Positions 1,754 through 28,288 are shown, counted from the stretch's first letter. The stretch: 64,000 nucleotides of DNA from Tubulanus polymorphus (GCF_964204645.1 NC_134032.1:7118275-7182274); one strand, 5' to 3'. Notes: generated by a model from the sequence alone, not told the origin. Program-made: numbers and translations.

Positions 1754-3047
1754 TTACACAATCAGTATCGGTATCATGACTGTCGTCGGCAATTCAAATA
1801 CAACTTCGTCCCCCACTCTGATTTCGTCCCAAAGCTGCCACGTTATTTCAAGTCTATGCCGACAATTCGACTTATCCACGGGTATATCGGGCACTTTGAT
1901 CCCAGAGCAGTCGAGTTCAAGTGGATGATGCGGACAGGATCCCAGTGGTATAAATACACTGGTAGATCTGTCGCAGCATTCCAAAATTAAATGAGAACAG
2001 TTTCCCTTGTTCTTAACCTGCCATCCCGTATGTAAATTAGATAGGAACCGTCCCAGTCTACACAAGTCCAAAATTATAATTCTTGCAACCAAAATAACCC
2101 CAACCCCAAATGCAATCTCAATCAATGGAAAATCAGACAAATCGAAACGTTCCCTCATAACATTTAATATAACCGTATCGTTTTGCGCATCGTGCAATTT
2201 AAATTCATATGTTTGATTAGAGACGACGGTAAACCCATTCACGAGTGGAATTTTCGCAGATGTTAAAACTATAGTAGCCAACAACCCTCTCATCCTGTAC
2301 CAAAAATAAATTGCTAAACATATGGAAACAGCTGAGAGACACAAAGAGCATAAAGTCAAAATATTTGGAAGGGTGAATGGAAATAGATTGGTATTTGTGG
2401 TAACCTGAGAAATGTGGACTGAGTTTATCGCGTCCGCCTTAGTAGCGTATAAATCATTTCCGTCCTTTAAATTCTTTACCATTTTCTTGAAGGAAGTACT
2501 AAACGCTCTGTCTGTCTCTGCGACGTGTGACCAATTTCCCCCCTTTAAATTGAAATCTGGAACTTCAACGTTGACCGGTTTTGTAAAAGTTGTCGCCCCG
2601 TTTATACCCCTTACATCCTGTTTATTATAAACTTGCAGCAACACCGGTATATTCGGTCTATGCAAAAGAGTTGGATTATCATCAGTGACGCAAGCTGAAA
2701 TTTTAGGAGCCAGTTCAAAGTTGTCAGAAGACAATCTACAAGAACATGGAACTTTTAGCAAGCAAAAATTACAACTTGTGATGGCTTTTGGTACCCGTCC
2801 ATCACATGTCAGTGTCCAAGTGTCCTCTCGACCAGAAACTAAATAAATGCTGTCCCGGAGCTGAACGGCTCCCTCGAACAACCCATCAGTTTGATACTTA
2901 ACATCACACAACCTATCAACCAAGTGACTATTGTCCTGGAAAAGTGCAAAGGCGCAACTAGGAATATTTTGAGTACGGAGAGACATAGTAACCCCACATG
3001 ATTTGACTGCTTTTCCCTGACACGTTTGATACAATTTGTACGACATC
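1754..3047 (-). pseudogene. env: env glycoprotein, C-terminal half (interrupted by insertion)
   Basis: Cys-rich ectodomain (CNFCLLKVPCSCRL) with N-glycosylation sequons and a TM segment ILTLCSLCLSAVSICLAIYFWY. It joins the N-terminal half in frame once the 3048-9628 insert and one TSD copy are removed (HTEMSYKLYQTC). Confidence 0.8.
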
Positions 3048-3462
3048 AGTAATAGGGGTAATAGGCTTTCATACCAAAGGTCGAACGGTCGAGCCCATTA
3101 AAAAATGAAAAACATAAAAATAATAACAATTTCTACTTGAATTACTCGCGAAACTCATAAAAATGAAAAATAAATTCTCACACGCTCGAATTTATTTTTC
3201 ATTTTCTACTCGCTAAGAAAAAGTGTGAGTAAAGTGTGAGTGAAATAATTCATATTTTAACAGATTTCGAGTAAAAATATAAGTAAAATAAATGGATAAC
3301 TAAACGAATATAAAAGTGTGAGTAAAGTGTGAGTGAAATAGTTTATATTTTAAACATATTTCAATATTTATATTTGTATGAGTTAGATTTTTAAACATTA
3401 AAAGTGTGAGTAAAGTGTGAGTGAAATAATTCATATTTAGAACCGTGAACATTTATATTTGA

Positions 3463-4110
3463 ATGAGTTTTAATAAAAATTTTGTTATAAAAATGAAGAA
3501 AGAAGAAGAACCCAACTTTAAAAACGAAATCAATGAAACCAATAAATCATTTTCACAGTTTAACATTAAAAATTATATTTCAGCAACAAATTTAGTGTCC
3601 GCAAGGCATTATAAAATTGAAAATATTACTGTAATTAATCAAATATTATCAAATGAAACATATTTAATTACTAAACTAGTAGATACCTTTGATAATGGCA
3701 TTAAAAATCCTAAAATGTTCAATACAGTTTTTAATTTTAAAGGAACTTTAGATGAAAACATAATTAATATTCTTAAAACTCCTTTAAATGAAAGAAATGA
3801 TGATATAATACTTTCAAAAGATTACAATGATTTGATTAACTTAAGAATTGAAAAAAGACAATTATATTATTTCAATTTTGATAATAAACAAATTATCTAT
3901 AATGAAAATTCATCAAATATTGGTATTCAATGTGAATTAGATAATGAAAAATCATTTAAAGATATTGCAGTTCAATGTAATTTAGATAATGAATTTAGAA
4001 AATTCAATCCTAATGAAAAAGTGCATTGTTATTGCGGAGGTAAATATTTAAAATCACATAAATCAAAGCATTATGAAACAATTAAACATAAAAACTGGCG
4101 TAAAGAGTAA
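3463..4110 (+). CDS. 215-aa protein with C-terminal CxCG...H...H zinc-finger-like motif
   Basis: HCYCGGKYLKSHKSKHYETIKH motif, a type common in large DNA viruses and Polinton-like viruses. The true start may be the second Met (3493). Confidence 0.6.
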   Translation: MSFNKNFVIKMKKEEEPNFKNEINETNKSFSQFNIKNYISATNLVSARHYKIENITVINQILSNETYLITKLVDTFDNGIKNPKMFNTVFNFKGTLDENIINILKTPLNERNDDIILSKDYNDLINLRIEKRQLYYFNFDNKQIIYNENSSNIGIQCELDNEKSFKDIAVQCNLDNEFRKFNPNEKVHCYCGGKYLKSHKSKHYETIKHKNWRKE

Positions 4111-4167
4111 CAATTCTACATTATAATTATTGAATTGAGTTAAATGATTTAAATATCTAATAGAATG

Positions 4168-5015
4168 TTGAAATGATAAATTGTTTGACAGTTGAAATGA
4201 TAATTGTTTGACAGTTGAAATGATAAATTGTTTGACAGTTGAAATGATAAATTGTTTAACAGTTGAAATGATAAATTGTTTGACAGTTGAAATGATAAAT
4301 TGTTTGACAGTTGAAATGATAAATTGTTTGACAGTTGAAATGATAAATTGTTCGACTGTTGAAATGATAAGACAGTTGAAATGATAAATTGTTTAACAGT
4401 TGAAATGTTAAATTGTTTGACAGTTGAAATGATAAATTGTTTGACAGTTGAAATGATAATTGTTTGACGGTTGAAATAATAAATTGTTTGACGGTTGAAA
4501 TGATAAATTGTTTGACGGTTGAAATGATAAATTGTTTGACAGTTGAAATGATAAATTGTTTGACAGTTGAAATGATAAATTGTTTAACAGTTGAAATGAT
4601 AAATTGTTTAACAGTTGAAATGATAAATTGTTTGACAGTTGAAATGATAAATTGTTTGACAGTTGAAATGATAAATTGTTTGACAGTTGAAATGATAAAT
4701 TGTTTGACAGTTGAAATGATAAATTGTTTGACAGTTGAAATGATAAATTGTTTAACAGTTGAAATGATAAATTGTTTGACGGTTGAAATGATAAATTGTT
4801 TGACAGTTGAAATGATAAATTGTTTGACATTTGAAATGATAATTGTTTGACAGTTGAAATGATAAATTGTTTAACAGTTGAAATGATAAATTGTTTGACA
4901 GTTGAAATGATAAATTGTTTGACAGTTGAAATGATAAATTGTTTGACAGTTGAAATGATAAATTGTTTAACAGTTGAAATGATAATTGTTTGACAGTTGA
5001 AATGATAAATTGTTT
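4168..5015 (+). repeat. 24-bp tandem array, ~35 copies (GACAGTTGAAATGATAAATTGTTT)
   Basis: Directly visible. It produces the spurious TVEMINCL and SNNLSFQL ORFs. Confidence 0.97.
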
Positions 5016-5140
5016 GGCTGTAAATTTAATTGTTATTTGATTTAATCATTTAAAAGTTTAATATTTTTAAAATGATTATAAAATATTTAATTAAAAACTA
5101 GCAAATATTTCATTAACTGTTTAATTTTTCTCTTAAATAA

Positions 5141-5338
5141 ATGGATGGTTTCATCCCAACTGGGAAAAGTGATTTGAAACATTATCTTGTAGCAGGAGGA
5201 TTGATATTGACTGCGCTTTATTTATACTATGAGAATATTAGTAAGGATTTGATGAATGAAAATATAAAATTGAGCAAGAAATTGAAAAAATTAAATGGAA
5301 ATAAAAATAATCATAAAAAAGTTATTGAATCAGATTAG
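5141..5338 (+). CDS. 65-aa putative single-TM protein
   Basis: Hydrophobic YLVAGGLILTALYLYY followed by a Lys-rich tail. Start context TTTTTCTCTTAAATAAATG matches the Polinton gene-start motif. Confidence 0.55.
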   Translation: MDGFIPTGKSDLKHYLVAGGLILTALYLYYENISKDLMNENIKLSKKLKKLNGNKNNHKKVIESD

Positions 5339-5358
5339 TGAATTAATTAAATAAATAA

Positions 5359-5661
5359 ATGAGTGAAAATATATTAAACTTATTACATCTAATATATAAA
5401 AATCAACAGAATATTGAATCAATTATTATGCTTACAGGTTTATTTTCTTTTTCAATTTATAGTATAAAACAGTTGTTAGAATTCTATGATTGCTGTAAAA
5501 TTAGATACACTGAATTAATAGAAAATATGAATTATATTTCAGATAGATTGAATAATATTAAATGCTGTGAAAAATGCAATAAAAGATATAAAAATAAAAA
5601 GAGTTTGAGAAATCACTTGTATATTCATGAACTTGATGAAAAATTATATGAATCAAAATAA
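5359..5661 (+). CDS. 100-aa protein with hydrophobic segment and C2H2 zinc finger
   Basis: CEKCNKRYKNKKSLRNHLYIH zinc finger; TAAATAAATG start. Confidence 0.6.
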   Translation: MSENILNLLHLIYKNQQNIESIIMLTGLFSFSIYSIKQLLEFYDCCKIRYTELIENMNYISDRLNNIKCCEKCNKRYKNKKSLRNHLYIHELDEKLYESK

Positions 5662-7126
5662 GAAATCGACTGTTAAATTAGCTGAAAATATAAAATATAT
5701 TAGTTGAAATGTATGAAAATAAAAGTTAATAAAAAAAGGGGGTTGAGGTATCAATGTATTAGATACCCTATTAGATACCCTAATACCATGTATTAAATAC
5801 ATATCAAATACGTATTGATGGTATTAAATACGTATTAATGGTATTGAATACATATTATGCTTTATTTCTGAAAATGAAGTAAAAGAAGTAATTTATGTTT
5901 TAATTCATTCAAGTATGATATTGTAAATTCTTTACAATTGTATAGGATAATACAAGAGTGATATTAGTTAGTTGGCTTATTCAATAAGAGAAACAATGAA
6001 ATAATACAAGAGTGATACTAACAGTTAAAGTTATTGAATTTCTTGTTAAATCTATTTGAATAGAAATCCAAAAAGATTTAAATAAAAAAACAATAAGTTA
6101 AATAAGTTAGTATTAGATAAAGTAACTTATTGTTTTTTTATTTAAATCTTTTTGATTTCTATTCAAATAGATTTAACAAGAATATAAATTTATAAAATAA
6201 AATCCTAATTCAAAATATTATAGAATTCACTGTATATTGATGGATGAGTGGATGAGTTGGATGAATTGGAAGAGTGGATGAATGGATGAGTGTAATAATA
6301 TATATATTTTACTTTTTAACACATAAATTGGAAGAATAGTATGAGTATAAATATAATATTTATATTCTTTATTAAATTTAACACAATATATATATTGTGT
6401 TAAATAATATTTAAATATAATATAAAATTGATAAAATAACTTCAAATCAAACTCTTACTGTTTTAAAAATAAAAAACATATGTAAATTATATATTATTAC
6501 ACTCATCCATTCATCCACTCTTCCAATTCATCCAATTCATCCAACTCATCCATTCATCCATCAATATACAGTGAATTCTATAATATTTTGAATTAGGATT
6601 TTATTTTATAAATTTATATTCTTGTTAAATCTATTTGAATAGAAATCAAAAAGATTTAAATAAAAAAACAATAAGTTACTTTATCTAATACTAACTTATT
6701 TAACTTATTGTTTTTTTATTTAAATCTTTTTGGATTTCTATTCAAATAGATTTAACAAGAAATTCAATAACTTTAACTGTTAGTATCACTCTTGTATTAT
6801 TTCATTGTTTCTCTTATTGAATAAGCCAACTAACTTATATCACTCTTGTATTATCCTATACAATTGTAAAGAATTTACAATATCATACTTGAATGAATTA
6901 AAACATAAATTACTTATTTTACTTCATTTTCAGAAATAAAGCATAATATGTATTCAATACCATTAATACGTATTTAATACCATCAATACGTATTTGATAT
7001 GTATTTAATACATGGTATTAGGGTATCTAATACATTGATACCTCAACCCCCTTTTTTATTAACTTTTATTTTCATACATTTCAACTAATATATTTTATAT
7101 TTTCAGCTAATTTAACAGTCGATTTC

Positions 7127-7438
7127 TTATTTTGATTCATATAATTTTTCATCAAGTTCATCAAGTTCATGAATATACAAGTGATTTCTCAAACTCTTTT
7201 TATTTTTATATCTTTTATTGCATTTTTCACAGCATTTAATATTATTCAATCTATCTGAAATATAATTCATATTTTCTATTAATTCAGTGTATCTAATTTT
7301 ACAGCAATCATAGAATTCTAACAACTGTTTTATACTATAAATTGAAAAAGAAAATAAACCTGTAAGCATAATAATTGATTTAATATTCTGTTGATTTTTA
7401 TATATTAGATGTAATAAGTTTAATATATTTTCACTCAT
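7127..7438 (-). CDS. Mirror copy of the C2H2 protein (103 aa)
   Basis: Inverted copy of 5359-5661 with an extra ELD (9-bp duplication) and one E-to-K change. Confidence 0.6.
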   Translation of the reverse strand: MSENILNLLHLIYKNQQNIKSIIMLTGLFSFSIYSIKQLLEFYDCCKIRYTELIENMNYISDRLNNIKCCEKCNKRYKNKKSLRNHLYIHELDELDEKLYESK

Positions 7439-7458
7439 TTATTTATTTAATTAATTCA

Positions 7459-7656
7459 CTAATCTGATTCAATAACTTTTTTATGATTATTTTTATTTCC
7501 ATTTAATTTTTTCAATTTCTTGCTCAATTTTATATTTTCATTCATCAAATCCTTACTAATATTCTCATAGTATAAATAAAGCGCAGCCAATATCAATCCT
7601 CCTGCTACAAGATAATGTTTCAAATCACTTTTCCCAGTTGGGATGAAACCATCCAT
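7459..7656 (-). CDS. Mirror copy of the 65-aa TM protein
   Basis: Inverted copy of 5141-5338 with one T-to-A change. Confidence 0.55.
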   Translation of the reverse strand: MDGFIPTGKSDLKHYLVAGGLILAALYLYYENISKDLMNENIKLSKKLKKLNGNKNNHKKVIESD

Positions 7657-7781
7657 TTATTTAAGAGAAAAATTAAACAGTTAATAAAATATTTGCTAGT
7701 TTTTAATTAAATATTTTATAATCATTTTAAAAATATTAAACTTTTAAATGATTAAATCAAATAACAATTAAATTTACAGCC

Positions 7782-8510
7782 AAACAATTTATCATTTCAA
7801 CTGTCAAACAATTATCATTTCAACTGTTAAACAATTTATCATTTCAACTGTCAAACAATTTATCATTTCAACTGTCAAACAATTTATCATTTCAACTGTT
7901 AAACAATTTATCATTTCAACTGTCAAACAATTATCATTTCAACTGTCAAACAATTTATCATTTCAACTGTCAAACAATTTATCATTTCAACTGTTAAACA
8001 ATTTATCATTTCAACTGTCAAACAATTTATCATTTCAACTGTCAAACAATTTATCATTTCAACTGTCAAACAATTTATCATTTCAACTGTCAAACAATTT
8101 ATCATTTCAACTGTCAAACAATTTATCATTTCAACTGTCAAACAATTTATCATTTCAACTGTCAAACAATTTATCATTTCAACTGTCAAACAATTTATCA
8201 TTTCAACTGTCAAACAATTTATCATTTCAACCGTCAAACAATTTATCATTTCAACTGTCAAACAATTTATCATTTCAACTGTCAAACAATTATCATTTCA
8301 ACTGTCAAACAATTTATCATTTCAACTGTCAAACAATTTAACATTTCAACTGTTAAACAATTTATCATTTCAACTGTCTTATCATTTCAACAGTCGAACA
8401 ATTTATCATTTCAACTGTCAAACAATTTATCATTTCAACTGTCAAACAATTTATCATTTCAACTGTCAAACAATTATCATTTCAACTGTCAAACAATTTA
8501 TCATTTCAAC
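7782..8510 (-). repeat. 24-bp tandem array, mirror copy (~30 units)
   Basis: Reverse complement of the 4168-5015 array with fewer units. Confidence 0.97.
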
Positions 8511-8566
8511 ATTCTATTAGATATTTAAATCATTTAACTCAATTCAATAATTATAATGTAGAATTG

Positions 8567-9214
8567 TTACTCTTTACGCCAGTTTTTATGTTTAATTGTT
8601 TCATAATGCTTTGATTTATGTGATTTTAAATATTTACCTCCGCAATAACAATGCACTTTTTCATTAGGATTGAATTTTCTAAATTCATCATCTAAATTAC
8701 ATTGAACTGCAATATCTTTAAATGATTTTTCATTATCTAATTCACATTGAATACCAATATTTGATGAATTTTCATTATAGATAATTTGTTTATTATCAAA
8801 ATTGAAATAATATAATTGTCTTTTTTCAATTCTTAAGTTAATCAAATCATTGTAATCTTTTGAAAGTATTATATCATCATTTCTTTCATTTAAAGGAGTT
8901 TTAAGAATATTAATTATGTTTTCATCTAAAGTTCCTTTAAAATTAAAAACTGTATTGAACATTTTAGGATTTTTAATGCCATTATCAAAGGTATCTACTA
9001 GTTAAGTAATTAAATATGTTTCATTTGATAATATTTGATTAATTACAGTAATATTTTCAATTTTATAATGCCTTGCGGACACTAAATTTGTTGCTGAAAT
9101 ATAATTTTTAATGTTAAACTGTGAAAATGATTTATTGGTTTCATTGATTTCGATTTTAAAGTTGGGTTCTTCTTCTTTCTTCATTTTTATAACAAAATTT
9201 TTATTAAAACTCAT
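8567..9214 (-). pseudogene. Mirror copy of the 215-aa protein with a nonsense codon
   Basis: Left-arm ACT AAA CTA reads ACT TAA CTA here (9002-9004), which splits the ORF into 70-aa and 131-aa pieces. Confidence 0.75.
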
Positions 9215-9628
9215 TCAAATATAAATGTTCACGGTTCTAAATATGAATTATTTCACTCACACTTTACTCACACTTTTAATGTTTAAAAATCTAACTCATA
9301 CAAATATAAATATTGAAATATGTTTAAAATATAAACTATTTCACTCACACTTTACTCACACTTTTATATTCGTTTAGTTATCCATTTATTTTACTTATAT
9401 TTTTACTCGAAATCTGTTAAAATATGAATGATTTCATTCACACTTTACTCACACTTTTTCTAGCGAGTAGAAAATGAAAAATAAATTCGAGCGTGTGAGA
9501 ATTTATTTTTCATTTTTATGAGTTTCGCGAGTAATTCAAGTAGAAATTGTTATTATTTTTATGTTTTTCATTTTTTAATGGGCTCGACCGTTCGACCTTT
9601 GGTATGAAAGCCTATTACCCCTATTACT

Positions 9629-10691
9629 GACATCTCCGTATGAAGTTGTCCGTCGGGTGATACTCCCAAATAGTCAGGTAACCCATCCACTATGGTAACA
9701 TTGTGGGTTGTGGAATTACACGGAATCGGAAAACTGTGAATACTATACAGATTAAAATATGCGCTGTTTTGGCTTAACGGTATTTTAATCGAAATGTAAA
9801 GGTATTTATCAGATTTTGAAAACAAAACCTGGCGTCGTTGGTAATAATAAGCTGGAATGGTGTGTAATACACGATACAGGGGGTGTCTCCGTTCCAGCAT
9901 AGCAGACACAGTACTCACAGCCCTGGCAATATGTTCTGGGCCAACTAAACGTATTGGTATGTAACCCTCTAGTAATGTTTGCACATCCGCCACCCAGTCA
10001 TGTGATATTCGTTCAAGGTCTAACATCGCCGAAAAAGAAACCGTGATTTGTTGTAATAAAAGCGCCACAAATCGTATATTTTTGTTAAACCCTGAAGCGA
10101 ATCTAGCTACTCTCCCAGTCATATTTCTAATCCTTATATCATTTAGGTGCATGGCGGACACAGCATTTTCAATACGCTTATCGACAGCCCCTGCAAAAGA
10201 TCCCAACCGTTTCGTTAAGGAAAATATTTGTTTGGTGTTTAATTTCGTTAATTTTTCGACCCGATTTACATGATCCTGTACTTGCAGCACATCGTCCACA
10301 GATGCGGTGCCAAATAAAGACTTAAAGACACCTGCAAAAAATCCAGCAGTACGCTTAACTCTACCATTTTTCGGCGCGTCTCTACTCGGAATTAACTTCT
10401 GCACCGTTTTCATATTTGTGTGAACACTCTCGATTAACGCATTATGTTTGGTGACCAAAAATTTGAGTGTGTCCGTAAAACTACTACAAACGACATCATT
10501 ATCCTCGCACGTCGGGATATCCAAGTTGACGGGCTGAACCTTTATCCAGGGTATGACCATGGTGTGGAGCCAATCAGAATGACCATTGTCAATGGTGGCC
10601 ACCTTCTCGAACACCACACCATACCCTGGTCTCACAACCGAGTCGTCATCGCATTTACCGTTATTGAGCAATGGAGAAAGGACGAGGCAGC
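9629..10691 (-). pseudogene. env: env glycoprotein, N-terminal half (baculovirus F / errantivirus env-like class I fusion protein)
   Basis: Furin-like site RVKR followed by fusion-peptide-like TAGFFAGVFKSLFGTAS and a heptad region. It lies directly downstream of the integrase. Confidence 0.8.
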
Positions 10692-10772
10692 CTACAAAAC
10701 GTGGAAAGAAGAGGCACTTAGTGCAGGAATCGGTCTCATAATGACATGAGGATTATTTAGCCCGAACAATAT

Positions 10773-12293
10773 TTAATGTCTTTTTTTCTTCTTTTCATTA
10801 AACGCATCAATAACTGATTTGTCAAAAATATTCTCCTCCGGCTCCCACGTTCTGTACCTGGACCCATAGCCTTTCCAATGCACCAAATACTCGGTCTTGC
10901 CATTTCTCAGTCGCCTAGATCTGACTAGCCGATCTACGGTATATATATCAGAATCATCCTGAATAGCTGATTGGAAGTTAGATCTAATTGGATCGGTAAT
11001 ACTTTCTTTAGATTTGGGTTCTGGTAGGTTACTGTCAACTTGGACATGATCCGGTGGCAAATCATCCTCGTCAAAGTCACCGTCAACAGGCAAGTCCTTC
11101 GGTACATCTACCGGTCTGTCGTCAGGGTGTATATAAATTTTCATGCGATTTACGTGGATCACCTTGTCTAATAATTTATTTTTCTTAACGTTATGTACTG
11201 TAAACCCCACGTCAGACTTTCTTTCAATTAAAACATATGGACCGTAATATTTGTGCACAAACTTTTTCGCCTGTCCCTTTTTGATAGCTGGACAGTATAT
11301 CCAAACATATTGACCAACCTCAAACTTGTGTTGTTTTGCATTTCTATCATAATATGATTTTTGTTTCGATTGTGCTTCCCTAATGTTGTTTCTAGCAATA
11401 TTATGGGCTAGTTGTGTATTTTTGACTACCCGTGTTAAACAGTCTCGATCTGAACCCAATAATGTTGTTGTCTCCAACAACGAACAGTCGATTGGTAGCT
11501 TTGGCTCGCGACCGTATAGTGGATAAAATGGTGTGTAAAGAGTTGTCTGAGAACAGGGACTACATCTATAGGCAAAGACACAGCCAGGAACAAATTCGTC
11601 CCAGTCATTTCCCGCTGAATTTACGCACATTGACAAACTATTTACCAATGTTTTGTTAAACCGTTCCGTAAGTCCGTCACACCAGGGAGCGTATGGACTA
11701 GTTCGAATTTTTGATGCGTTGAATAACTTGCAGATTTCTAGTATTAATTTCGAATTAAAGTTAGACCCTTGGTCTGTGAGTAATGCTTTAAAGCAACCAT
11801 GTCGGACAACTATTTCATCGAATAATATTCGAGCTATCTTTGCAGATTCGATAGTTTCCAGACAGAAACATTCTACATACTTTGTTAAATACTCGGTGAT
11901 TACTAAAATGTATCTATTCCCTCGTTTCGTGACATTAAGCGGTCCTAGAATATCCGCGCCTATTAAGTCCCATACGTCATGTACTTCAATAGGTATCATA
12001 GGCGCTTTCTTTTTATTTGGTGCAGGCTTTCTTGAGGCACAAGCCTCGCAACTGAGACACCAATGTTTTACATCATAATACATGCCTTTCCAGAAATACC
12101 TCATTCTTGTTTTTAAGTATGTTCTCGTTACCCCAAAATGACCGGCAGCAAGGTCATCGTGCATTGCGTAAAGTATTTCCGAGCGCATAGTTTTAGGGAC
12201 TACCAATTGGTTAATCATCTCCCCGTTATTAAGATAAATGTGATATAAGATTCCTGATTCATTTAGAAAGTATTGGTCACTTTCCAACAACAC
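10773..12293 (-). CDS. pol: Gypsy-type integrase with C-terminal chromodomain (pol fragment)
   Basis: HHCC zinc motif (HDDLAAGHFG...CEAC), DDE core (GADILGP, LTDQGSNF, GLTERFN), GPY motif and chromodomain YTVDRLV...YLVHWKGYGSRYRTWEPEENI. Frameshifted upstream continuation at 12263-12724. Confidence 0.9.
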   Translation of the reverse strand: MLLESDQYFLNESGILYHIYLNNGEMINQLVVPKTMRSEILYAMHDDLAAGHFGVTRTYLKTRMRYFWKGMYYDVKHWCLSCEACASRKPAPNKKKAPMIPIEVHDVWDLIGADILGPLNVTKRGNRYILVITEYLTKYVECFCLETIESAKIARILFDEIVVRHGCFKALLTDQGSNFNSKLILEICKLFNASKIRTSPYAPWCDGLTERFNKTLVNSLSMCVNSAGNDWDEFVPGCVFAYRCSPCSQTTLYTPFYPLYGREPKLPIDCSLLETTTLLGSDRDCLTRVVKNTQLAHNIARNNIREAQSKQKSYYDRNAKQHKFEVGQYVWIYCPAIKKGQAKKFVHKYYGPYVLIERKSDVGFTVHNVKKNKLLDKVIHVNRMKIYIHPDDRPVDVPKDLPVDGDFDEDDLPPDHVQVDSNLPEPKSKESITDPIRSNFQSAIQDDSDIYTVDRLVRSRRLRNGKTEYLVHWKGYGSRYRTWEPEENIFDKSVIDAFNEKKKKRH

Positions 12294-12885
12294 TTTCCTA
12301 GCAAGCTTATCGTCTGTGGGTAGCTCCTGCTTAAGTAATAATTAATTATATTGCTCAGCTCATTATCGTTGCGTTGTTTTTCTTTTAATTTTCGTTTTGT
12401 CCCGTCGCCTCCACACGGCGGAGGTTCCACATTCAAATTACTACAATATGTGTCCTCATTTATTATAAATTCATCAGTAAAATATGTAAAATCGGGAGGG
12501 TGATCAAGTCCTACCGAAGTTACGTTTAATACGTCCATTTGAGGAACAAATTCATTTGCAAATGGTGACAAGGCTGTTTGGTCTCGTCGTTCATATCCAG
12601 AGACCATAATTTCTCTATTCCCCCCGCCCTCTGTTGTATATACGTCATTTTCTTCGCTCGAGTTGCTTAAAATTATTTGGTCTGTTAATACGAGACTTTT
12701 GTCACATGGACATCTCTGGTCCACTTTTGCTGCAGGTACATTACATTCTACTTTATTTTCATTTAATATCTCCCCATCCCCTTCCCCTCCCCAAATGCGT
12801 ACGTAATAAATGAATTAACCCTATAGCCAATCTACTTAAGACCACTTATGCACTTTTGGGTTTAAGCCATGACTGCAACAGGCTC

Positions 12886-13110
12886 CTCGTACGATTAATA
12901 TTTATATTTACACTGAACCTCATTCGTACGACTAATAATCTGAACCTCATTCGTACGATTAATATTTATTTTTACACCGAACCTCATTCGTACGACTAAT
13001 AATCTGAACCTCATTCGTACGATTAATATTTATATTTACACTGAACCTCATTCGTACGACTAATAATCTGAACCTCATTCGTACGACTAATATTTATATT
13101 TACACTGAAC
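12886..13110 (+). repeat. Minisatellite, 64-bp period (alternating 27- and 37-bp subunits, core CTGAACCTCATTCGTACGA)
   Basis: Core starts at 12913, 12940, 12977, 13004, 13041 and 13068. Confidence 0.9.
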
Positions 13111-13925: not shown

Positions 13926-14122
13926 GGGGTCATAAATTTATTACGTACGCATTAGGGGAGGGGAGGGGAGGGTAAGTGCAATCGTGTATTATTGCTTTAA
14001 GTACAGAAAAAATGGCAGATTTTGCGTGGCTGGGAGTTAATATTTTATGCGTGCTTGATGTGACAGATCCTTAGCCCCTCCCCTCCCCTCCCCTAATGCG
14101 TACGTATTAAAGAATTGACCCC
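13926..14122. mobile_element. ~160-200-bp MITE (TIR GGGGTCATTCATTTATTACGTAC)
   Basis: Terminal inverted repeats. Related copies at 15935-16090, 16555-16724 and 17029-17191, with partial or degenerate copies at ~12770-12822 and ~24880-25040. Confidence 0.75.
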
Positions 14123-17100
14123 TAATGAGATGTTGCATCAAAGTTGGTTGAAGAATTTCATGTATCATTGTCATCATATTTTTTGGATTTTATTCTATGT
14201 ACATGAATCACAAAATAAGAAGCATGTCGCCTTACTCGGACATGGCCAACTTGGACAAAAAAAGAAATTTTCCAATTCCTTACTCGGACTGCGCTTACCT
14301 CGAACTAAATTTGCCAATCCCAGTTTGTGCGTGTTAGACAAGGTTTTACTGTACATTGTATGTATTTTTCCATGATGATGATCCATGAAATAATAAGGCC
14401 AAGATTACCAGTACGCACTTTCATCAGATGTAACATATCGGAATCCAGAACTTGTTCCGCAAGGTAGTTCCTCATTTTTTCATTTTGATCTGGATTGATG
14501 TGTTTTTCTGTCAGTTTTCGGTGGATCCGTAGGGAATTGTTGTTAGTATCCCACTCATGGTCTGCTGCCCAGTGTTTCCATAGTATATCTCGATTGCCGA
14601 CGTTCAGAAGTCTAGTGTGGAATTTTTGATGACCACTTTTCAGAACATTGTTGCGGATCTTTTTAAACAGATGCTAGGATAGATAAATAACACCGTTATT
14701 AGTACTTGAAATCCCCTCAGTGAAAACTGGTAAGTACCCTAGTAAATAACTTGTTTCATTTATCCAGATAAAAGTTAATTTGTTTTGTTTTTTCTTTAAT
14801 TTACAGCTCTTACCGATGGGTCCAATAGAAGAGGAAGTGGCTTATGTCCGAAAGGATTTAAAGTCGTAAACTTTCCCTCAATAGGGAGCATCATTTTCAT
14901 CAATGTGCGATTACATTGCGCTCCATCCATACACATGTATGTCACCTGAAAAGTTACCATACAGCTTTTCAATATTTTTATACATTTACCGGGTGATATT
15001 TTAGGATGTATTATAATCTACCTCGAAACCCCAATTCCCTAGTTCGCAAATAATTTCAGATAAGATCATATAGAGTTCAGCAGCACTAGCTTGATCAGTT
15101 GGATAACTAGCAATTGTCAATCGGAAGCCAGTGTTTCCCATGAATGTGAGCTGCAGGACGTGGTTTGCAATTTTAGGCTCGTACTTTCCTACAATGATAA
15201 AAAACTATATTTTACAGAATATGGTGGTGGATGAGGACAAGCAGCAGTTGGTGTCTTTGAGGATTTAAGCAGAAGAAATTTTAATGGGAAACATTTCAGG
15301 GAATTACTTGCCAGGAGCGCCCTTAAATGATTTCCAGCATCGCCCATATCAACGAACCCTTGAAGTATAGCGCGGCCATTTTTGTAAGTAATTTGTAGGT
15401 CTTCCTATTTAAAAAAAATGAAATGTAAACAAGTGGTATCATTTTTAACCCATTAGCACTCAGGAATTGCACTATGTTCTGTCTATAACTCCTCAGAAAA
15501 TTCAAGGGAAAATCCAAATTCATCACGATACAGAATAGCTCATTATGACATTGATTGAATATTCCTGTGGTATTTCTTTTGATAGATTTTGTCTATTCAA
15601 TATTTTTGTCAATGTTTCATTTTAGGCGTGGATCTTGATTCAGTACCTGTATTGACATTTCATCGAAGATGAGACCGCCACGTTTTGCTTCATCCGGTAG
15701 ACGTAATCGTTCGCTTTCTTGAGAAAGCCACATCAACAGAGCGGTGTTGTATCCAGTGCCATGGCTAACTTGGCTTTTATAATAATGTAACAGCCGTCCG
15801 GATGGCAGTCGGAACATGCTACTTGCTTTCATGTCGGCAAACGCTTAAGGCGACTGACACCAAAGTCTGAGACAAAACGCGATAAGTCTGAAATGTAAAC
15901 AAGATTGATTGTAAATAGAAATAAGTTTTGCTATGGGATCATTCATTTATTACGTACACATAAAATTTGACTTTTTCAACCCCCTCTGTACACAAATCGG
16001 CCATTTTTTCACGTATATTTAGCATTGCAGTTCGCAATTGCACTTACCCCTCCCCCTCCTCTAGTGCGTACGTAATAAATAAATGACCACTATTGCAGCT
16101 ATCAATCTTGATCTATGTAGTTCCACAGTAGTCGATTAAAGTCATACTTAAAACATTGACAAAATTAGTTTCAAACTGTTTTAAGAATCTAATTTGACCG
16201 GCTACTGCGGCACTGCACCGATTTTGTCTACGCACTGTACCTAAGACAGTCAAATAGATTACAAAATCAGATCGTCTAGGCATATATCAAAAATTATTGT
16301 CTAAGGTACAGGCAGCAGATTGGTACCTGCATATATGCTATCCTTGCTTGGCAGGGTTTAATTGCCTGCTGATCAAGATCATGCCCACACTAACTGTGGC
16401 CGCAGATCATTCATCAGTCTATTACACAGTCCAAGATTTCTTAGGGAGACAAATTGCCGCTGAGCGGCCACCAGTCTATATACTTAGTCAGTCGAATGCA
16501 TCCTGCAACTGACGTTTATGGCAAACTGGCTTCTGATTTCAAATTGCTAGTTTAGGGTTAATTCATTTATTACGTACGCATTAGGGGAGGGGAAGGGGTA
16601 AGTGCAAATTTGCATGTCACTGTAATGCTCAATGTATATGTAAAAATAGCCGATTTTGCATACATGGGGGGGGGGGAGTTGAAAAATTCAAATTGTATGC
16701 GTACGTAATAAATGAATAGTCCCCAACTAATCAAGCTAGTGCCGCGGAACTTTATATGATCTTATGAGAGGGATAATTTGCAAACTATCAAATTGGCTCA
16801 ATACAAACAATGTATCTGATTGGCTAGATATATAGACTTGTGGTAGTCAAGTGGCAACTTTTCCGCTCAAGAAATCGGTGCCATGTAAAAGATTTATGAA
16901 GGAACTATGGCCACGGTTAATGTTAGCATGAATGAGCTTTGGCGGGAGGTAATCAAACGCTGGCAAGTGAGGATTTTTAGGTCATAATTGAGAAGGGATA
17001 CTAATTTTTTAAAGCCCACTTAGGGCTAGGGGTCATTCATTATTACGTACACATCAGGGGAGGGGGAGGGGTCAGTGCAATTGCGTACTGTAATGCTTAA

Positions 17101-17606: not shown

Positions 17607-18034
17607 TGTGAAGATCAACCGATACGTAAGATTCATGTTCCGTGGCAAAAAATCATTAGGACATTTATTTTCAGACGTCACAAACACGGATGCACGATTA
17701 ACTACAAACAAATAGAAAATTACCATAAATAAATTTGTATAATTATTGACATAAGAGAATATCTTTATATTGGCAATTTACCGTAATATTTGGCTGTCTA
17801 AACCTTCAATTTAAATCTTCACCCTTTACTCAAATACAGCAACACAACCTTACAGGTCTAAATCCATATAACAAGTGACCAAAAATCTCAAAATCTGATA
17901 TATCTATTGAACTATACAAATTCTCAGGCTATAGAATTACCATGACCAGAAACCATGAAATAACAACCATAGAAATATATCAAATACAGTATACAGAATA
18001 CAATAAAGCAGAATTTCAGGAATTATTCCTTACA
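17607..18034 (-). repeat. BEL 3' LTR
   Basis: Direct repeat of 23993-24420; only 3 substitutions found by eye. Confidence 0.96.
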
Positions 18035-18143
18035 TACCCGCCCCCTAATTGAGAAACTCAATTAACATAATAACGATAATGTCCAAAAACAAAAACCTAT
18101 TCTTGACTGTTAAGCACGATGAATCTAAAGTAACAAAGAGAAT

Positions 18144-20120
18144 CTAAAGTTTAATTTCATTTTCGACGAGAACGCACAGCTTATCAATAGGACGCTGAAA
18201 AATAGTACCCTTTGCCGTTCTTACTGAAGCCGAACGAACAAAACCTTTTCGATCACGATGGACTTCTGAAATACGCGATAGAGTCCACGAGTTACGGATG
18301 GATCCATCGACGATGAAGACAATATCTCCAACACATACGTTTCGTTTCGCAGTATTCCATTTACTGCGAATCTGCAGGAGATGCAAATACTCAGATGTCC
18401 ACCGCTTCCAGAAAACATTCGCAATATGCTGAACTTGCCTCCAACGACGTCGAGTATATAAATCGGATTTGTCAAATAGTCCGGGAGGAAAAGTAGATCC
18501 TTTGTGTAACAGTAATAGGTGATTCGGGGTTAAAGGTTGTAGATCATTTGGATCATTTGATAACGTAGATATAGGTCGACTATTCAAAATCGACTCGACC
18601 TCACAGAACAATGTGGATAAATTATCATCATTTAGATTTGAACCTTGTTCTTTCATCAATGAAAACAAGATTTTACGGACGGAACGAATGAGGCGTTCCC
18701 ATACACCTCCAAAGTGACTCGCACCTGGAGGATTAAAAATCCACTTGACATTGTTCTGCAATAAGAAATCATGGATTTGGTCCTTATTCCAACAATCAAT
18801 ATTCCTCTGTAGCTCTCGATTGGTTCCAACAAAATTGGTTCCATTATCAGATCGAATTAGACGTACATTTCCACGTCGTGCGATAAATCTGCGATAAGCG
18901 TTAATACAACCAGATGTGTCCAGAGTAGGCGAGACCTCCAAATGAACAGCCCTAGTTACCAGGCAGGTGAAGATAACACCATAACGCTTCTCAATACAAC
19001 GACCCCGTTTTACCTCAAACGGGCCAAAGTAATCTGTTCCCGTATTAGTAAATGGCGGATTGTCAGGCAACAATCGCTCTTGAGGAAGATCTGCCATCTT
19101 CTGATTACAAACTTGACCACGGTACTTTTTACATAAAACACATTTCCTCGTTATATCCTTAACCAGTTGATTAGCCCTTAAAATCCAGTAACGCTCGCGC
19201 AATCGGGCTAACATTGAGCTTTTACCAAGATGCCCGACCGATGCATGAACACTCAACAATATCAATTTCGACACATGAGAACATCTAGGCAATACAACCG
19301 GATGTCGTTGTTCATATTCAAGAAAATATGCTTTTCTCAGCCGACCACCAACACGGATTATATCGTCTTCTAAAACAGGATCTAGTTGATACAATTGACT
19401 ACCTCTGGGAATCAACTTTCTATCATTTGAACGGAGAATCACTAATTCTTTCCTGAAATAATCTTCCTGTACGCATTTAATAATTGCCAGCTCGGCTCTT
19501 TGAAGATCATCAGTACTCAGCTTATTGGTATTCAATCGTTCAGCATTAGCGTTTTCACCAGAAAGACGTTTACTTACTCTCAACAGCAAACAATCTTTCA
19601 ACCTTAAAAACCATGCAGCGGCACGTTTGAGTCTATGCCAGCTTGAGTAGTAGTTAAATAGATGTTTTATAGGATCATCATCAGAAACCGAAAGTACAGC
19701 ATTAGAAGTCTTCTTCAACTCAACATCATCATCACTCAGGGACCGTAAAACACCGTGTTGACATGGCCACTCAGATATTGGCTTCCAAAGGAACTCCGGG
19801 CCGTGTAACCATACTACTGAGTTTTGTTCTATACAATCCAGTGACAAACCCCTAGACGCATAATCTGCTGGGTTCAGATGACCATCTACAAACTTCCACT
19901 GCTGAATACTTGAACCATCTCTAATTAAATTCACTCTATTCGCTACGAAAGTGTGATAACGAGCAGTCTCATTAGCAATATATTTCAGTACTGCAGTGCT
20001 GTCGCTCCAAAAATATACATTTGAAACACTGTACTCCAATTCTTCCAACATCATCTTATTCATCTTAATCAGTAATGCAGCTGCAGCTAATTCCATCCTA
20101 GGAACTGTCATTTTCTTCAA
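18144..20120 (-). CDS. pol: BEL/Pao RNase H-integrase portion of polyprotein
   Basis: VPRMELAAA, FWSDSTAVL, NPADYASRG, TGTDYFGP, RSDNGTNF and GGVWERLIR motifs. Frameshifted from the RT ORF near 20170. Confidence 0.92.
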   Translation of the reverse strand: MKKMTVPRMELAAAALLIKMNKMMLEELEYSVSNVYFWSDSTAVLKYIANETARYHTFVANRVNLIRDGSSIQQWKFVDGHLNPADYASRGLSLDCIEQNSVVWLHGPEFLWKPISEWPCQHGVLRSLSDDDVELKKTSNAVLSVSDDDPIKHLFNYYSSWHRLKRAAAWFLRLKDCLLLRVSKRLSGENANAERLNTNKLSTDDLQRAELAIIKCVQEDYFRKELVILRSNDRKLIPRGSQLYQLDPVLEDDIIRVGGRLRKAYFLEYEQRHPVVLPRCSHVSKLILLSVHASVGHLGKSSMLARLRERYWILRANQLVKDITRKCVLCKKYRGQVCNQKMADLPQERLLPDNPPFTNTGTDYFGPFEVKRGRCIEKRYGVIFTCLVTRAVHLEVSPTLDTSGCINAYRRFIARRGNVRLIRSDNGTNFVGTNRELQRNIDCWNKDQIHDFLLQNNVKWIFNPPGASHFGGVWERLIRSVRKILFSLMKEQGSNLNDDNLSTLFCEVESILNSRPISTLSNDPNDLQPLTPNHLLLLHKGSTFPPGLFDKSDLYTRRRWRQVQHIANVFWKRWTSEYLHLLQIRSKWNTAKRNVCVGDIVFIVDGSIRNSWTLSRISEVHRDRKGFVRSASVRTAKGTIFQRPIDKLCVLVENEIKL

Positions 20121-20125
20121 AGGAG

Positions 20126-22696
20126 CTACTCTGCTTTTAGCAAATATAAAACAACAATGTACTTGACCATTTCATCTTCAAGGCGCAAATATGATACAGT
20201 GCCGTACCCAACATCACTTGCGTCCGCAAAATGATGCAGCTGACAAGATTTCGAAGAACCATGAAACCATTGAGGTTTGAAGCATCGTGATATAGCCAAC
20301 TCTTCAAGGCCCGGTAAACCTTCCTGCCATTTCTCCCAAACTTTCAGATATTTTTCAGGAATTTCTTCATCCCATGAAAGCTTCTCTCTACATAAGTCCT
20401 GTAGCAGAATTTTCACCGGCAGTTCATATGGGGCAGCAATACCCAAAGGATCATAGACTGTGCTGACCGTTGACAAAATCCCTCTGCGTGTATTTGGTTG
20501 ATGCTTAGAAGTTATCCTGAAGCCATAAGTGTCGTTCTCTATATTCCAGTGGACGCCCAATGCTCTTTCTGTTGGCGAACCAAAATCCAGACTCTTCAAC
20601 TCCTTGCAAGATTTAGCAAGCTCTTCTTCTGGCAAACTTTCAATTACAGAACGATCATTACTTACAAACTTGGTGAGTCGAAAGCCCCCTTCTTTACACA
20701 GAGATATCAGTTTCATCACAAATTCTGGATTTTGACCATCTTGTACACGAGACTTCAAACAGTCATCAACATAGAAGTTTTTCAAGACTGTATTGGTAAC
20801 TTCTACTTCATACTTGCTAACGTTGTCAGTGGCTGTCCGGCGTAAAGCCCAGTTAGAACAACTCGGGGATGAGATTGCCCCAAATAAGTGAAATAACATA
20901 CGGAATGGTATGGCTTTCTTGTTCAAATCACCATCCGGCCACCATAAGAATCTCAAGCAGTCTTTATCATCCGGTGCAACCCTTACTCTATAAAACATAG
21001 ATTCTATATCTGCCATTATTGCGGTTCTTTCTTGTCTGAAACGTATCAACACACCAACCAAAGTGTTAGTCAAATCTGGCCCTTGTAACAATTGAGAATT
21101 CAAAGACACTCCACCATAAAGTGCAGGACAATCGAAAACGACACGGACTTTTTCAGGTTTTTTGGGGTGATATACCCCGTGATGAGGTATATACCATATA
21201 CGACCATTTTCCAAACGCAAATCTTCATTAGGAACCTGTTCCGCGTAGCCTTTAGCCAATATATTGTCCATAAAGACATTATAGTCATGTCGAAACTTGT
21301 CATTTTTCAACAGCTTATTTTCCAGATTTGACAGTCGTTTCTCAGCATGCCGAATATTATTGGGAAACCTCAAATTCTTGTCACGCCATGGCATTGGTAA
21401 TTGGTACTGTCCATTCTCTATTTTTACATTGGACTCCATCATCGTCATAAATTTATGATCTTCAACTGACCATTGTTTTTTATCTTCAGCAATTCGCTCA
21501 GGAAAGTCAAAATCTATAGCTTCCTGAACCAATTGATCAAGAGAACTCACAGCACAGCTGATTTTGTCAACAGTGTCGGTAACTATATCATCGTCTTCAT
21601 CACCAGATCTAATAACATTCCAGGCGACCCATCCTAGTCTAGTTCTGGAAGCATGTGGTGATCCAGCTGGGCCTGTCCGTAACTCGAACGGTGTGTATGC
21701 ATCCGCAATATTATTGCCAATCAACAGACCAATTTCTGCATCTATCTTAGGCAATTTAACATCACTCATGTGCGACCATTTACGGATGTCATCTTCTGTT
21801 GGCACATGCAGTGGTGAAACTGGCATCTGCTCTGTAGTATAAACAGCAGGCATGAAAACTACGTCTTCAGTTTCCAAACCTCTGACTTCTAAACAATGAA
21901 CAATCTGAGTATCAAGCATTGTAGACCTCGCCATAGTGTCGAGATTCAATCTCACTTTCTTGCCAATACCGCCGATCTGCTTCAACAACGACGAAGTACA
22001 AAAAGAAATACTACTTCCAGGATCTAGGAAGGCGAAAGTTATCACTTCTGGAATTCTTCCCTTCACTTTCACTCTAACTGGAAGTATAGCCATAGTACAG
22101 AATCCATCTGTCTTCTTTTCACCATCATTTATGGCGCCACAGGGAATTCCATCTTTTACATCTGATATCGTGTTCTGATTATGATCTCTTCGTGTCATAA
22201 TTGCTGGGTTTTCAGGAAGTGACCTAGAATCATCATGCAGTACACTTGGATGCAACCGTTTACATATATCACAGTTCATCTTCAATCTACAATTTCTCTT
22301 CTGATGTCCAGATCGGAGACAACCCCAACAGAGGCCTTTTCTTTTAAGAAAAGATATTTTTTCTTCAAAGACCACATTAGACAGGTCTTTACAATCATTT
22401 AATACATGATCGCCAGCGCAGTATATACATGGTTTCTTCAATGCAAGATTAAATGAGTTTTGTTGATTCGTATGAGAAATGCTCCCCGTCTGTGCAGCAA
22501 CAGTATTTCGGCTACCCTGTGATATTCGCAGAGACTTTTTGTCTTTCTTCTGATCTAACGCAGCAGCCATCATATCTTTACCAAAAATCGGGTCGTTCAC
22601 CTTTTTTGACTCCTTCCGTACAAAACTCACTAAGGTATTCAGATTTATAGTATTACCAGCAGAGCGCGTTGTCTGTACTGTACTATAGTTCTCCAT
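20126..22696 (-). CDS. pol: BEL/Pao gag zinc knuckles, protease and reverse transcriptase
   Basis: CIYC/CWGC/CDIC knuckles, AFLDPGS protease, ADIESMF, LFGAISSP and FYVDD RT motifs. Confidence 0.92.
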   Translation of the reverse strand: MENYSTVQTTRSAGNTINLNTLVSFVRKESKKVNDPIFGKDMMAAALDQKKDKKSLRISQGSRNTVAAQTGSISHTNQQNSFNLALKKPCIYCAGDHVLNDCKDLSNVVFEEKISFLKRKGLCWGCLRSGHQKRNCRLKMNCDICKRLHPSVLHDDSRSLPENPAIMTRRDHNQNTISDVKDGIPCGAINDGEKKTDGFCTMAILPVRVKVKGRIPEVITFAFLDPGSSISFCTSSLLKQIGGIGKKVRLNLDTMARSTMLDTQIVHCLEVRGLETEDVVFMPAVYTTEQMPVSPLHVPTEDDIRKWSHMSDVKLPKIDAEIGLLIGNNIADAYTPFELRTGPAGSPHASRTRLGWVAWNVIRSGDEDDDIVTDTVDKISCAVSSLDQLVQEAIDFDFPERIAEDKKQWSVEDHKFMTMMESNVKIENGQYQLPMPWRDKNLRFPNNIRHAEKRLSNLENKLLKNDKFRHDYNVFMDNILAKGYAEQVPNEDLRLENGRIWYIPHHGVYHPKKPEKVRVVFDCPALYGGVSLNSQLLQGPDLTNTLVGVLIRFRQERTAIMADIESMFYRVRVAPDDKDCLRFLWWPDGDLNKKAIPFRMLFHLFGAISSPSCSNWALRRTATDNVSKYEVEVTNTVLKNFYVDDCLKSRVQDGQNPEFVMKLISLCKEGGFRLTKFVSNDRSVIESLPEEELAKSCKELKSLDFGSPTERALGVHWNIENDTYGFRITSKHQPNTRRGILSTVSTVYDPLGIAAPYELPVKILLQDLCREKLSWDEEIPEKYLKVWEKWQEGLPGLEELAISRCFKPQWFHGSSKSCQLHHFADASDVGYGTVSYLRLEDEMVKYIVVLYLLKAE

Positions 22697-23976: not shown

Positions 23977-23992
23977 TATTACGTTAATAAAA

Positions 23993-24420
23993 TGTGAAGA
24001 TCAACCGATACGTAAGATTCATGTTCCGTGGCAAAAAATCATTAGGACATTTATTTTCAGACGTCACAAACACGGATGCACGATTAACTACAAACAAATA
24101 GAAAATTACCATAAATAAATTTGTATAATTATTGACATAAGAGAATATCTTTATATTAGCAATTTACCGTAATATTTGGCTGTCTAAACCTTCAATTTAA
24201 ATCTTCACCCTTTACTCAAATACAGCAACACAACCTTACAGGTCTAAATCCATATAACAAGTGACCAAAAATCTCAATATCTGATATATCTATTGAACTA
24301 TACAAATTATCAGGCTATAGAATTACCATGACCAGAAACCATGAAATAACAACCATAGAAATATATCAAATACAGTATACAGAATACAATAAAGCAGAAT
24401 TTCAGGAATTATTCCTTACA
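23993..24420 (-). repeat. BEL 5' LTR
   Basis: 428-bp direct repeat of 17607-18034. Confidence 0.96.
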
Positions 24421-27979: not shown

Positions 27980-28288
27980 ACTCGAAAAGTCATTTTGTGA
28001 AGTCGACTTACAAACTCGAAAAGTCGACTTTTTAAAGTCGAAAGGTCGACTTATTAACTCGAAAAGTCGACTTTTTAAAGTCGAAAAGTCGACTTTTCGA
28101 ATTTATATTTTTTAATATTTTAATAACTCGAAAAGTCGACTTTTCAAAGTCGAAAAGTCGACTTATTAACTCGATAAGTCGACTTTTTAAACTCGAAAAG
28201 TCGACTTAATAGCGCGAAAAGTCGACTTTCTAAGCCGAAAAGTCGACTGAAAATAAAATGTTGTCATTGGCCGCATTGCTCTTCCGTA
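27980..28288 (-). repeat. Subterminal array of palindromic AAAAGTCGACTTTT units ending in a TACGG terminus (IS3EU-like end)
   Basis: About 10 GTCGAC-cored units with ~21-bp spacing. CCGTA ends at 28288, upstream of the integrase gene. Confidence 0.55.

Follow-up and report, generated by a model that had tools for sequence, protein, structure and literature searches.

A near-wholly palindromic, gene-bearing mobile element with Polinton-type ends in Tubulanus polymorphus, probably a fold-back satellite

A 6.6-kb element in the genome of Tubulanus polymorphus raises the question of how a mobile DNA that consists almost entirely of two inverted arms, and in which no enzyme of replication or integration is recognisable, could multiply and move. 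The sequence examined is a 64,000-nt window (NC_134032.1:7118275-7182274), a term used here for the whole stretch analysed, and the element occupies positions 3048-9628, opening with AGTAAT and closing with ATTACT. We consider it probable that this is one copy of a multi-copy, near-wholly palindromic mobile element sustained as a fold-back satellite by a helper, a Polinton family that is a sister of the Polinton present in the same window; the element itself is real, multi-copy, gene-bearing and palindromic, and it is very likely dependent on Polintons. The parts on which the argument first depends are as follows.

3042-3047, plus strand: target-site duplication, left copy, GACATC (from the sequence)
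9629-9634, plus strand: target-site duplication, right copy, GACATC (from the sequence)
3048-6304, plus strand: left arm, 3,257 nt (alignment of the halves)
6488-9628, minus strand: right arm, 3,141 nt, an inverted copy of the left arm (alignment of the halves)
6305-6487, unstranded: AT-rich spacer between the arms, 183 nt, loop of the predicted fold-back
3048-3093, plus strand: Polinton-like terminus, 46 nt, predicted as a likely origin and integrase site (terminal identity)
9583-9628, minus strand: Polinton-like terminus of the right end (terminal identity, reads of run X5)

The original prediction had described AGT and ACT termini with a 6-bp duplication, enclosing a perfect fold-back of two arms of about 3.2 kb. 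Termini and duplication lie exactly where they had been placed, and the arms together make up 97.2% of the element, which is palindromic, but the fold-back falls short of perfection: between the arms there are 19 substitutions (11 of them outside a 24-bp tandem array), 7 indels and the spacer. The insertion interrupts an open reading frame (ORF) on the minus strand, whose halves (9568-10560 and 1754-3046) carry the duplicated hexamer in the same frame. This ORF had been called a Gypsy env gene. The ORF upstream encodes a chromodomain Gypsy integrase, firmly identified (Pfam Integrase_H2C2 9e-21, Chromo 1e-15); the envelope label itself is weak, with matches to fusion glycoprotein F0 at E 0.07 and, beyond these, a furin-site and fusion-peptide pattern that we take to be envelope-like. 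The element is real at this locus, and the observation is confirmed. A contig of data set X1 (depth 18.3), without a single difference over 9605-12813, joins an element end to the right flank. Arm sequence is partly present in four of ten listed sequencing runs, all four from one study. The spacer is covered in every run aligned to the element, four in number.

The link to Polintons begins at the termini. A 6-bp target duplication and (AGT)2//(ACT)2 ends are hallmarks of Mavericks (PMC8097293), and the window contains a Polinton that serves as context outside the element.

32982-47539, unstranded: Polinton with its own 6-bp duplication AAACTG and terminal inverted repeats (TIRs) of about 110 nt (sequence, Pfam)

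Its genes include an rve integrase (1.6e-10; 35400-36527) and an A32 ATPase (6e-13), together with a weak capsid match. The first 46 nt of the element align without gaps to the termini of this Polinton at 34 of 46 positions (74%), and at 28 of 40 once the shared first six letters are set aside; the next best site in the window, on either strand, reaches 25 of 46, and none of 20,000 shuffles reached 34. Beyond about 46 nt the element is not colinear with the window Polinton, the one Polinton compared.

A second line of evidence comes from the gene starts. Most of the 14 Polinton genes (33097-47423) show a run of T followed by an A-rich, ATAAATG-like start, and a matrix built from the 14 gene starts in the window, 13 of which remain positive in leave-one-out scoring, ranks the starts of the element's three ORFs, ORF1, ORF2 and ORF3, first, second and fourth among the 94 ATGs of arm and spacer, the array being excluded. 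The two best of these starts score 7.4 and 5.8, above the top of 1,650 ATGs outside both elements (3.6), and nine host-transposon starts score between -9 and -28 on the same matrix. By this score a start of ORF1 at 3493 is more probable than the start at 3463 first proposed. The link to Polintons that had been predicted is borne out, beyond the end letters and the duplication, by the terminal identity, by the shared gene-start motif and by the many flanks described below. The motif is strongly conserved and recalls the core of poxvirus late promoters. Within the Polinton, a further strong site at 42304 on the minus strand marks a small ORF, and each TIR takes in the start motif of the outermost gene on its side. 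The one long non-coding stretch of the Polinton (34504-34811) contains a repeat of 97-nt period with an 18-20-nt motif in both orientations; this motif also forms the base of a 143-nt hairpin in the element, a match that by itself is not significant.

The Polinton of the window is probably not the helper itself. Its polymerase-like ORF is in two pieces (44440-45072 and 45215-47041), seemingly too short for a whole enzyme, which we take to be polymerase fragments from their motifs and which found no confirming match in Pfam, PDB, phages or NCBIfam; since its termini are 74% identical and this ORF is split, the window Polinton is more likely to be kin to the helper than to be the helper itself. 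A small zinc-finger ORF at its right end is broken as well, and the Polinton sits inside what we presume to be a Harbinger-type element (29906-30247, 32545-32838, 47993-48523). No relative of its integrase was found in viral contigs, and the terminal motif of the element was found in no viral or metagenome contig.

That the element belongs to a family is shown by X5, a raw-read DNA run from a separate study with the identical species label, of which 12% was used. In all, 1,440 X5 reads extend past 9628 into letters that agree at only 0.35, and the terminus therefore sits in many different flanks; copies are dispersed at many insertion sites, their target duplications being unreadable in the reads. 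Another 786 reads match the terminal 58 nt alone (9571-9628) and then diverge jointly (agreement 0.9), so that a second abundant family uses the same ends; it is not present elsewhere in the window. Read depth in X5 falls from about 900 at the terminus to 250-290 over ORF1, 44-144 over ORF2 and ORF3, about 57 in the inner arms and 21.6 in the spacer. Over the eight innermost bins the summed depth of the arm pair is 44-61, a ratio to the spacer of 2.0-2.8, and elements with this inner arm therefore mostly carry this spacer once. The lowest X5 depth in continuous flank, 18-28, is that of 13.06-15.2 kb. If this flank is a single locus, we estimate that at least some tens of elements have these ends; if it is itself present in about 4.6 copies, as X1 suggests, the estimate becomes a few hundred. 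Shorter variants attached to the same inner segment are seen in X2 and X3, for example through a joint of 5662 to 6234.

Some further observations on the reads may be recorded here. Single X1 contigs at 5847-6035 and 7629-7759 are 85-113 times as deep as the unique flank contig, above what X5 implies; X1 contig depths are no measure of copy number, other repeats are inflated in X1 as well, and the excess over the inner arm could reflect AT bias of the library, a difference in copy number between individuals, or free copies. No site of many molecule ends lies at the element terminus among those listed for X5. Reads leave the arm at 9320 in 332 cases, and 44 X5 reads link 9320 to an element terminus of the opposite strand, possibly because one family member is nested in another in multiple copies. 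ORF3 stands behind different upstream sequence (7440, 5357) in 31 X5 reads and an X1 contig, and it therefore also occurs in other arrangements.

The two arms of this copy resemble each other far more closely than they resemble the family. They differ by about 0.6%, and 914 of 1,081 X5 reads are 90-99% alike to this copy. We chose nine sites in the variant table at which many or most reads depart from this copy, and the two arms agree at all nine; at position 5573 this copy departs from 60 of 62 X5 reads and from the entire X1 depth, and its arms still agree. Since the arms co-vary against the reads, some process copies one arm from the other between insertions, and the element thus keeps 3-kb arms alike within each lineage. 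All five coding substitutions between the arms are non-silent, changing or stopping the protein, as would be expected if the arms had inserted in identical form and had been decaying from then on.

Each arm is organised in the same order from the terminus inward: subterminal repeats, ORF1, the 24-bp array, ORF2, ORF3, the 143-nt hairpin and short G-rich repeats, with all three ORFs oriented toward the centre of the element.

3160-3205, unstranded: subterminal hairpin with an 18-bp stem (from the sequence)
3219-3438, plus strand: three subterminal direct repeats, with identical 29-mers at 3219, 3312 and 3400 (from the sequence)
3493-4110, plus strand: ORF1, 205 aa, with a C-terminal CxC..H..H zinc-binding motif (top start-motif score)
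4167-5016, plus strand: 24-bp tandem array, about 36 units, G-rich on the plus strand (from the sequence)
5141-5338, plus strand: ORF2, 65 aa, a short hydrophobic stretch followed by a basic tail (second-best start-motif score)
5359-5661, plus strand: ORF3, 100 aa, a hydrophobic stretch and a C-terminal C2H2 finger (Pfam zf-C2H2, E 0.0017)
6040-6182, unstranded: internal near-perfect hairpin, 143 nt, with a mirror copy at 6619-6761 (from the sequence)
6376-6405, unstranded: perfect 30-nt palindrome near the centre of the spacer (from the sequence)
7127-7438, minus strand: right-arm ORF3, 103 aa, with an in-frame 9-nt duplication (ORF reading)
7459-7656, minus strand: right-arm ORF2, 65 aa (ORF reading)
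7781-8510, minus strand: right-arm 24-bp array, about 31 units (from the sequence)
8567-9184, minus strand: right-arm ORF1, with a premature stop at codon 61 (ORF reading)

The array predicted for each arm is thus present in both. The three genes foreseen per arm are intact in the left arm, but ORF1 of the right arm is stopped. Of the two zinc-finger-like genes and one membrane gene expected, the zinc motifs of ORF1 and ORF3 hold, the match of the latter falling below the curated cut-off of Pfam; ORF2 is only modestly hydrophobic, its Kyte-Doolittle 19-mer maximum being 1.19, and is exceeded in this by ORF3 (1.5, ahead of its C2H2 finger). As had been noted, no polymerase, integrase or capsid gene is recognisable: ORF1-3 have no such match in Pfam, PHROGs or NCBIfam. 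Genes for an ATPase, a protease or a helicase have no match in the element either, whose longest ORF is 215 aa. The hairpin region 6030-6195 is predicted to fold at -54.8 kcal/mol (DNA parameters, without a shuffle control), and an Rfam scan gave no match at gathering score. We rejected the open frame of the array (MINCLTVE repeats) as a gene, units of 23, 21 and 17 nt breaking the frame and its ATGs scoring low, and dropped the central palindrome as a telomere-resolution-like site, nine of ten X5 reads differing at 6397.

Candidate searches for the three ORFs were made among proteins of near-query length. For ORF1 they gave no match among 452 candidates; a full HMMER search returned 11 metagenomic matches at E<=0.001, all confined to the C-terminal zinc motif, two of them GIY-YIG proteins, and none of the nine proteins looked up had an informative name. 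Two Atlas scores for ORF1 (0.85 and 0.76) are leads only, its single-sequence AlphaFold model is unusable (mean predicted local distance difference test score 37.9), its motif profile matches the Polinton ORF at 43142-44443 weakly (E 0.0096), and a kinship with the Polinton ORF at 33097 as an OB-fold protein was unsupported by comparison. No homologue of ORF2 was found. ORF3 has one relative, 66% identical, on the 1-kb contig P0012, and none in viral contigs. Among the listed family variants of ORF2, 8 of 11 are synonymous against 25% expected (P about 0.001), which shows purifying selection across the family and makes ORF2 likely to be a working gene. As a guess, ORF2 would be a small membrane-anchored modulator of helper or host, and ORF1 and ORF3, again at a guess, nucleic-acid-binding regulators.

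How would such an element propagate? It is presumably mobilised by Polinton enzymes, as its ends and its duplication alone suggest, and would be replicated in trans by the protein-primed polymerase of a Polinton. The single-strand panhandle model for Polintons reportedly goes back to Kapitonov and Jurka. In its published form, the TIRs of an excised strand pair with each other, the strand is copied by a protein-primed polymerase, and it re-enters the genome with a new duplication (10.64898/2026.07.28.741278, legend to Fig. 4). In the case at hand, the integrase of a Polinton would recognise the terminal 46-58 nt or so, excise and insert the element and make the 6-bp duplication. Any single strand set free or displaced would then fold on itself as a duplex of about 3.2 kb, closed by a 183-nt loop and with a double-stranded origin at its open end. 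There the helper polymerase may prime, and by copying through the loop it would produce a duplex of 6.6 kb that has an origin at both ends. Repair or fold-back priming within the panhandle could keep the arms alike in each lineage while lineages diverge, and ORF1-3 would be switched on with the genes of the helper and modulate helper or host. The helper would be a sister family of the window Polinton, probably not this copy. The original interpretation, a separate small replicon that borrows Polinton enzymes, is in part supported: the Polinton connection holds, and existence as a free replicon would be a further step.

Several points weigh against this interpretation. Neither a free molecule nor a terminal protein nor mobilisation has been observed, and the only candidate helper compared is the window Polinton, which is probably not the exact helper. 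The start-motif scores are raised by AT-richness; the start of ORF3, at 0.7, falls inside the range of host starts; third rank goes to a non-coding ATG at 3292; and the start of ORF1 was chosen after scoring. The motif common to the arm hairpin and the Polinton repeat was rejected as evidence, since 16% of 200 shuffles match as well. Among the listed variants, synonymous changes number two of six in ORF1 and one of seven in ORF3, no more than neutral in this small sample; the tables from which the variants come list the best-supported ones (40 of 332 and 40 of 247 rows), and those variants that share descent are not independent. From the steep outward rise in depth it follows that the majority of ORF1-bearing arms do not run on into this spacer at 90% identity, their interiors either differing or having diverged by more than 10%. 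At the locus itself, the sole junction contig has 24 nt within the element, below the 31-nt bridging rule, and no read or contig in the runs examined spans flank, arm, spacer, arm and flank, the left junction and the arrays being uncovered.

A bolder version of the satellite interpretation, which we put forward tentatively and regard as doubtful, would make the element a true satellite virus that depends on animal Polintons. Its replicon would be a DNA hairpin of 3.3 kb with one protein-primed end and one loop, and the 6.6-kb palindromic copy would be the form that integrates; small membrane and zinc-finger proteins of its own would be made from the helper's start signal, and helper capsids would carry it. 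If true, this would be an equivalent in DNA of snap-back defective genomes, heritable and with genes.

The rival that survives best, though we hold it to be unlikely, is an ordinary non-autonomous deletion derivative, in which the arms are 3.2-kb gene-bearing TIRs of an unseen full-length Polinton family, a subfamily of which lost its core once and has since been moved in trans. Butterfly Polintons with gene-holding TIRs of about 2 kb do exist (10.1101/2025.02.07.637071), gene-start motifs of Polinton type would be inherited, and the depth of ORF1 and the terminus, 5-15 times that of the inner arm, means that many arms lead into unseen interiors. Against this, the inner-arm to spacer ratio of 2.0-2.8 leaves little room for arms running into a core, none of the six X5 loose ends listed (246 further rows exist) lies at an arm-spacer border, and the shorter-arm variants (5662 to 6234) still join the same inner segment. 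Reported TIRs are also shorter, 46-1,447 bp in vertebrates and 100-1,500 bp generally (PMC8097293, PMC10748475), and the genes in butterfly TIRs are core genes (hexon, adenain), whereas ORF1-3 match no core gene. The original prediction had dismissed a deletion derivative on the ground that the genes do not resemble those of the window Polinton. They indeed do not, tblastn of ORF1-3 against the Polinton and the rest of the window giving nothing significant (best E 0.14), but the argument is weak, since the local Polinton, with termini 74% identical, is at best a cousin of the helper and a parent family may lie elsewhere.

Less probable again is a parasite of the integrase only, moved as double-stranded DNA by cut-and-paste with no extrachromosomal replication, its arms kept alike by chromosomal gene conversion. 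All direct evidence concerns the ends and the insertion, as this view would have it, and for Galileo it has been suggested that long TIRs draw recombination and conversion to themselves (PMC3573991). However, the 19 substitutions, 7 indels and nonsense change between the arms have been left uncorrected, and chromosomal conversion is therefore not keeping pace; the retention of genes with Polinton start signals, one of them under selection, would also go unexplained.

Very improbable is a Foldback- or Galileo-type non-autonomous transposon, served by an unrelated DDE transposase and Polinton-like at its ends by coincidence. Long, internally repetitive inverted repeats with a scant interior are the classic build of such elements (PMC3573991), and the arms do hold a tandem array, but the 46-nt terminal homology to the Polinton is far past chance and already largely refutes coincidence, the duplication has 6 bp where that of Galileo has 7 bp (PMC3573991), and the gene starts are of Polinton type. 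An assembly or library fold-back artefact at this locus, to which the lack of a molecule spanning the whole element in the data examined would lend itself, is hardly credible, because the arms differ by whole array units in addition to their substitutions and indels and the spacer occurs in all four runs aligned, and also in view of the clean duplication in frame within one ORF and the independent short-read contig that runs from the element into the right flank.

The rest of the window holds other repeats. At 17607-24292 lies a long terminal repeat element, presumably BEL/Pao-like, with direct repeats 99% identical and three long minus-strand ORFs, and at 52877-57197 a unit of about 1,476 bp is present in three tandem copies, 94-100% alike. 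The end of another very abundant repeat falls at 15935-16080, where 1,505 X5 reads have unrelated flanks before 15935; it is related to 13926-14030 in inverted orientation. There are also a 64-bp array (12887-13110), a 22-bp array rich in a short palindrome (28000-28248) and an inverted repeat of 223 nt around a 340-nt spacer (51142-51927).

Polinton replication is still a model, and an element that is nearly all panhandle, without enzymes of its own, would be a natural record of the panhandle step. The minimal cis signal would be the terminal 46-58 nt or so, common to the Polinton and the second abundant family. Should the helper's signal indeed drive expression of the small genes, such elements would be satellites with functions rather than wreckage, and an extra layer of parasitism would lie beneath the endogenous DNA viruses of animals. 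They are easily missed in assemblies, or discarded as fold-back artefacts.

Non-autonomous Polintons are listed in Repbase. A whole-element palindrome with Polinton ends is not described in the available passages of PMC6431247, PMC3014272, PMC10748475, 10.1101/2024.01.15.575659 and PMC6863802, nor is such an element described among the matches listed in the full-text literature, judged by titles and abstract openings, with Repbase reports, most subscription journals and supplements outside the scope of that search. With Polinton/Maverick elements it shares the 6-bp duplication, the AGT//ACT ends (five of the six letters of (AGT)2), the terminal homology, a low GC content (22% versus 24%) and the gene-start motif. 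It differs in its size, 6.6 kb versus 12.7-24.6 kb (PMC8097293, PMC10748475), in inverted repeats that take up 97% of the element versus TIRs of 46-1,447 bp, and, from autonomous Polintons, in having no match to a polymerase, integrase, ATPase, protease or capsid gene. Like butterfly Polintons (10.1101/2025.02.07.637071) it has long inverted arms that duplicate genes; those, however, are full-length elements with core genes in their TIRs, whereas the present element amounts to its arms, with genes that do not belong to the core set. Transpovirons (PMC5499653) are likewise linear DNAs of about 7 kb with inverted ends, small genes including one for a zinc-binding protein, dependence on a larger virus and an ability to integrate; unlike the present element they have a helicase and ordinary TIRs and ride on mimiviruses, whereas here no superfamily 1 helicase match was found and the partner would be a Polinton. 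Foldback and Galileo copies (PMC3573991) are similar in being almost purely long, internally repetitive inverted repeats, but Galileo has a P-superfamily transposase and a 7-bp duplication in place of Polinton ends, a 6-bp duplication and genes in the arms. The hybrid-ended linear plasmid pELF1 (PMC6863802), with one hairpin and one presumed protein-capped end, offers an analogy of shape to the folded single strand, although it is bacterial, 143 kb long, unrelated and non-integrating, with a loop of 4 nt rather than 183 nt. The closest likeness in form is to snap-back or copy-back defective viral genomes (PMC13506859), which share near-full self-complementarity, two copies of one terminus and dependence on a helper, the last being presumed here. 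Those genomes have been described mainly for RNA viruses; they do not code for proteins, are transient, and derive from one end of the parent, with which they are colinear, whereas the element of Tubulanus is DNA, integrated, inherited as a diverged family and not colinear with the available Polinton, and has genes of its own, one of them under selection. In its workings it resembles a non-autonomous Polinton, in its build a snap-back defective genome.

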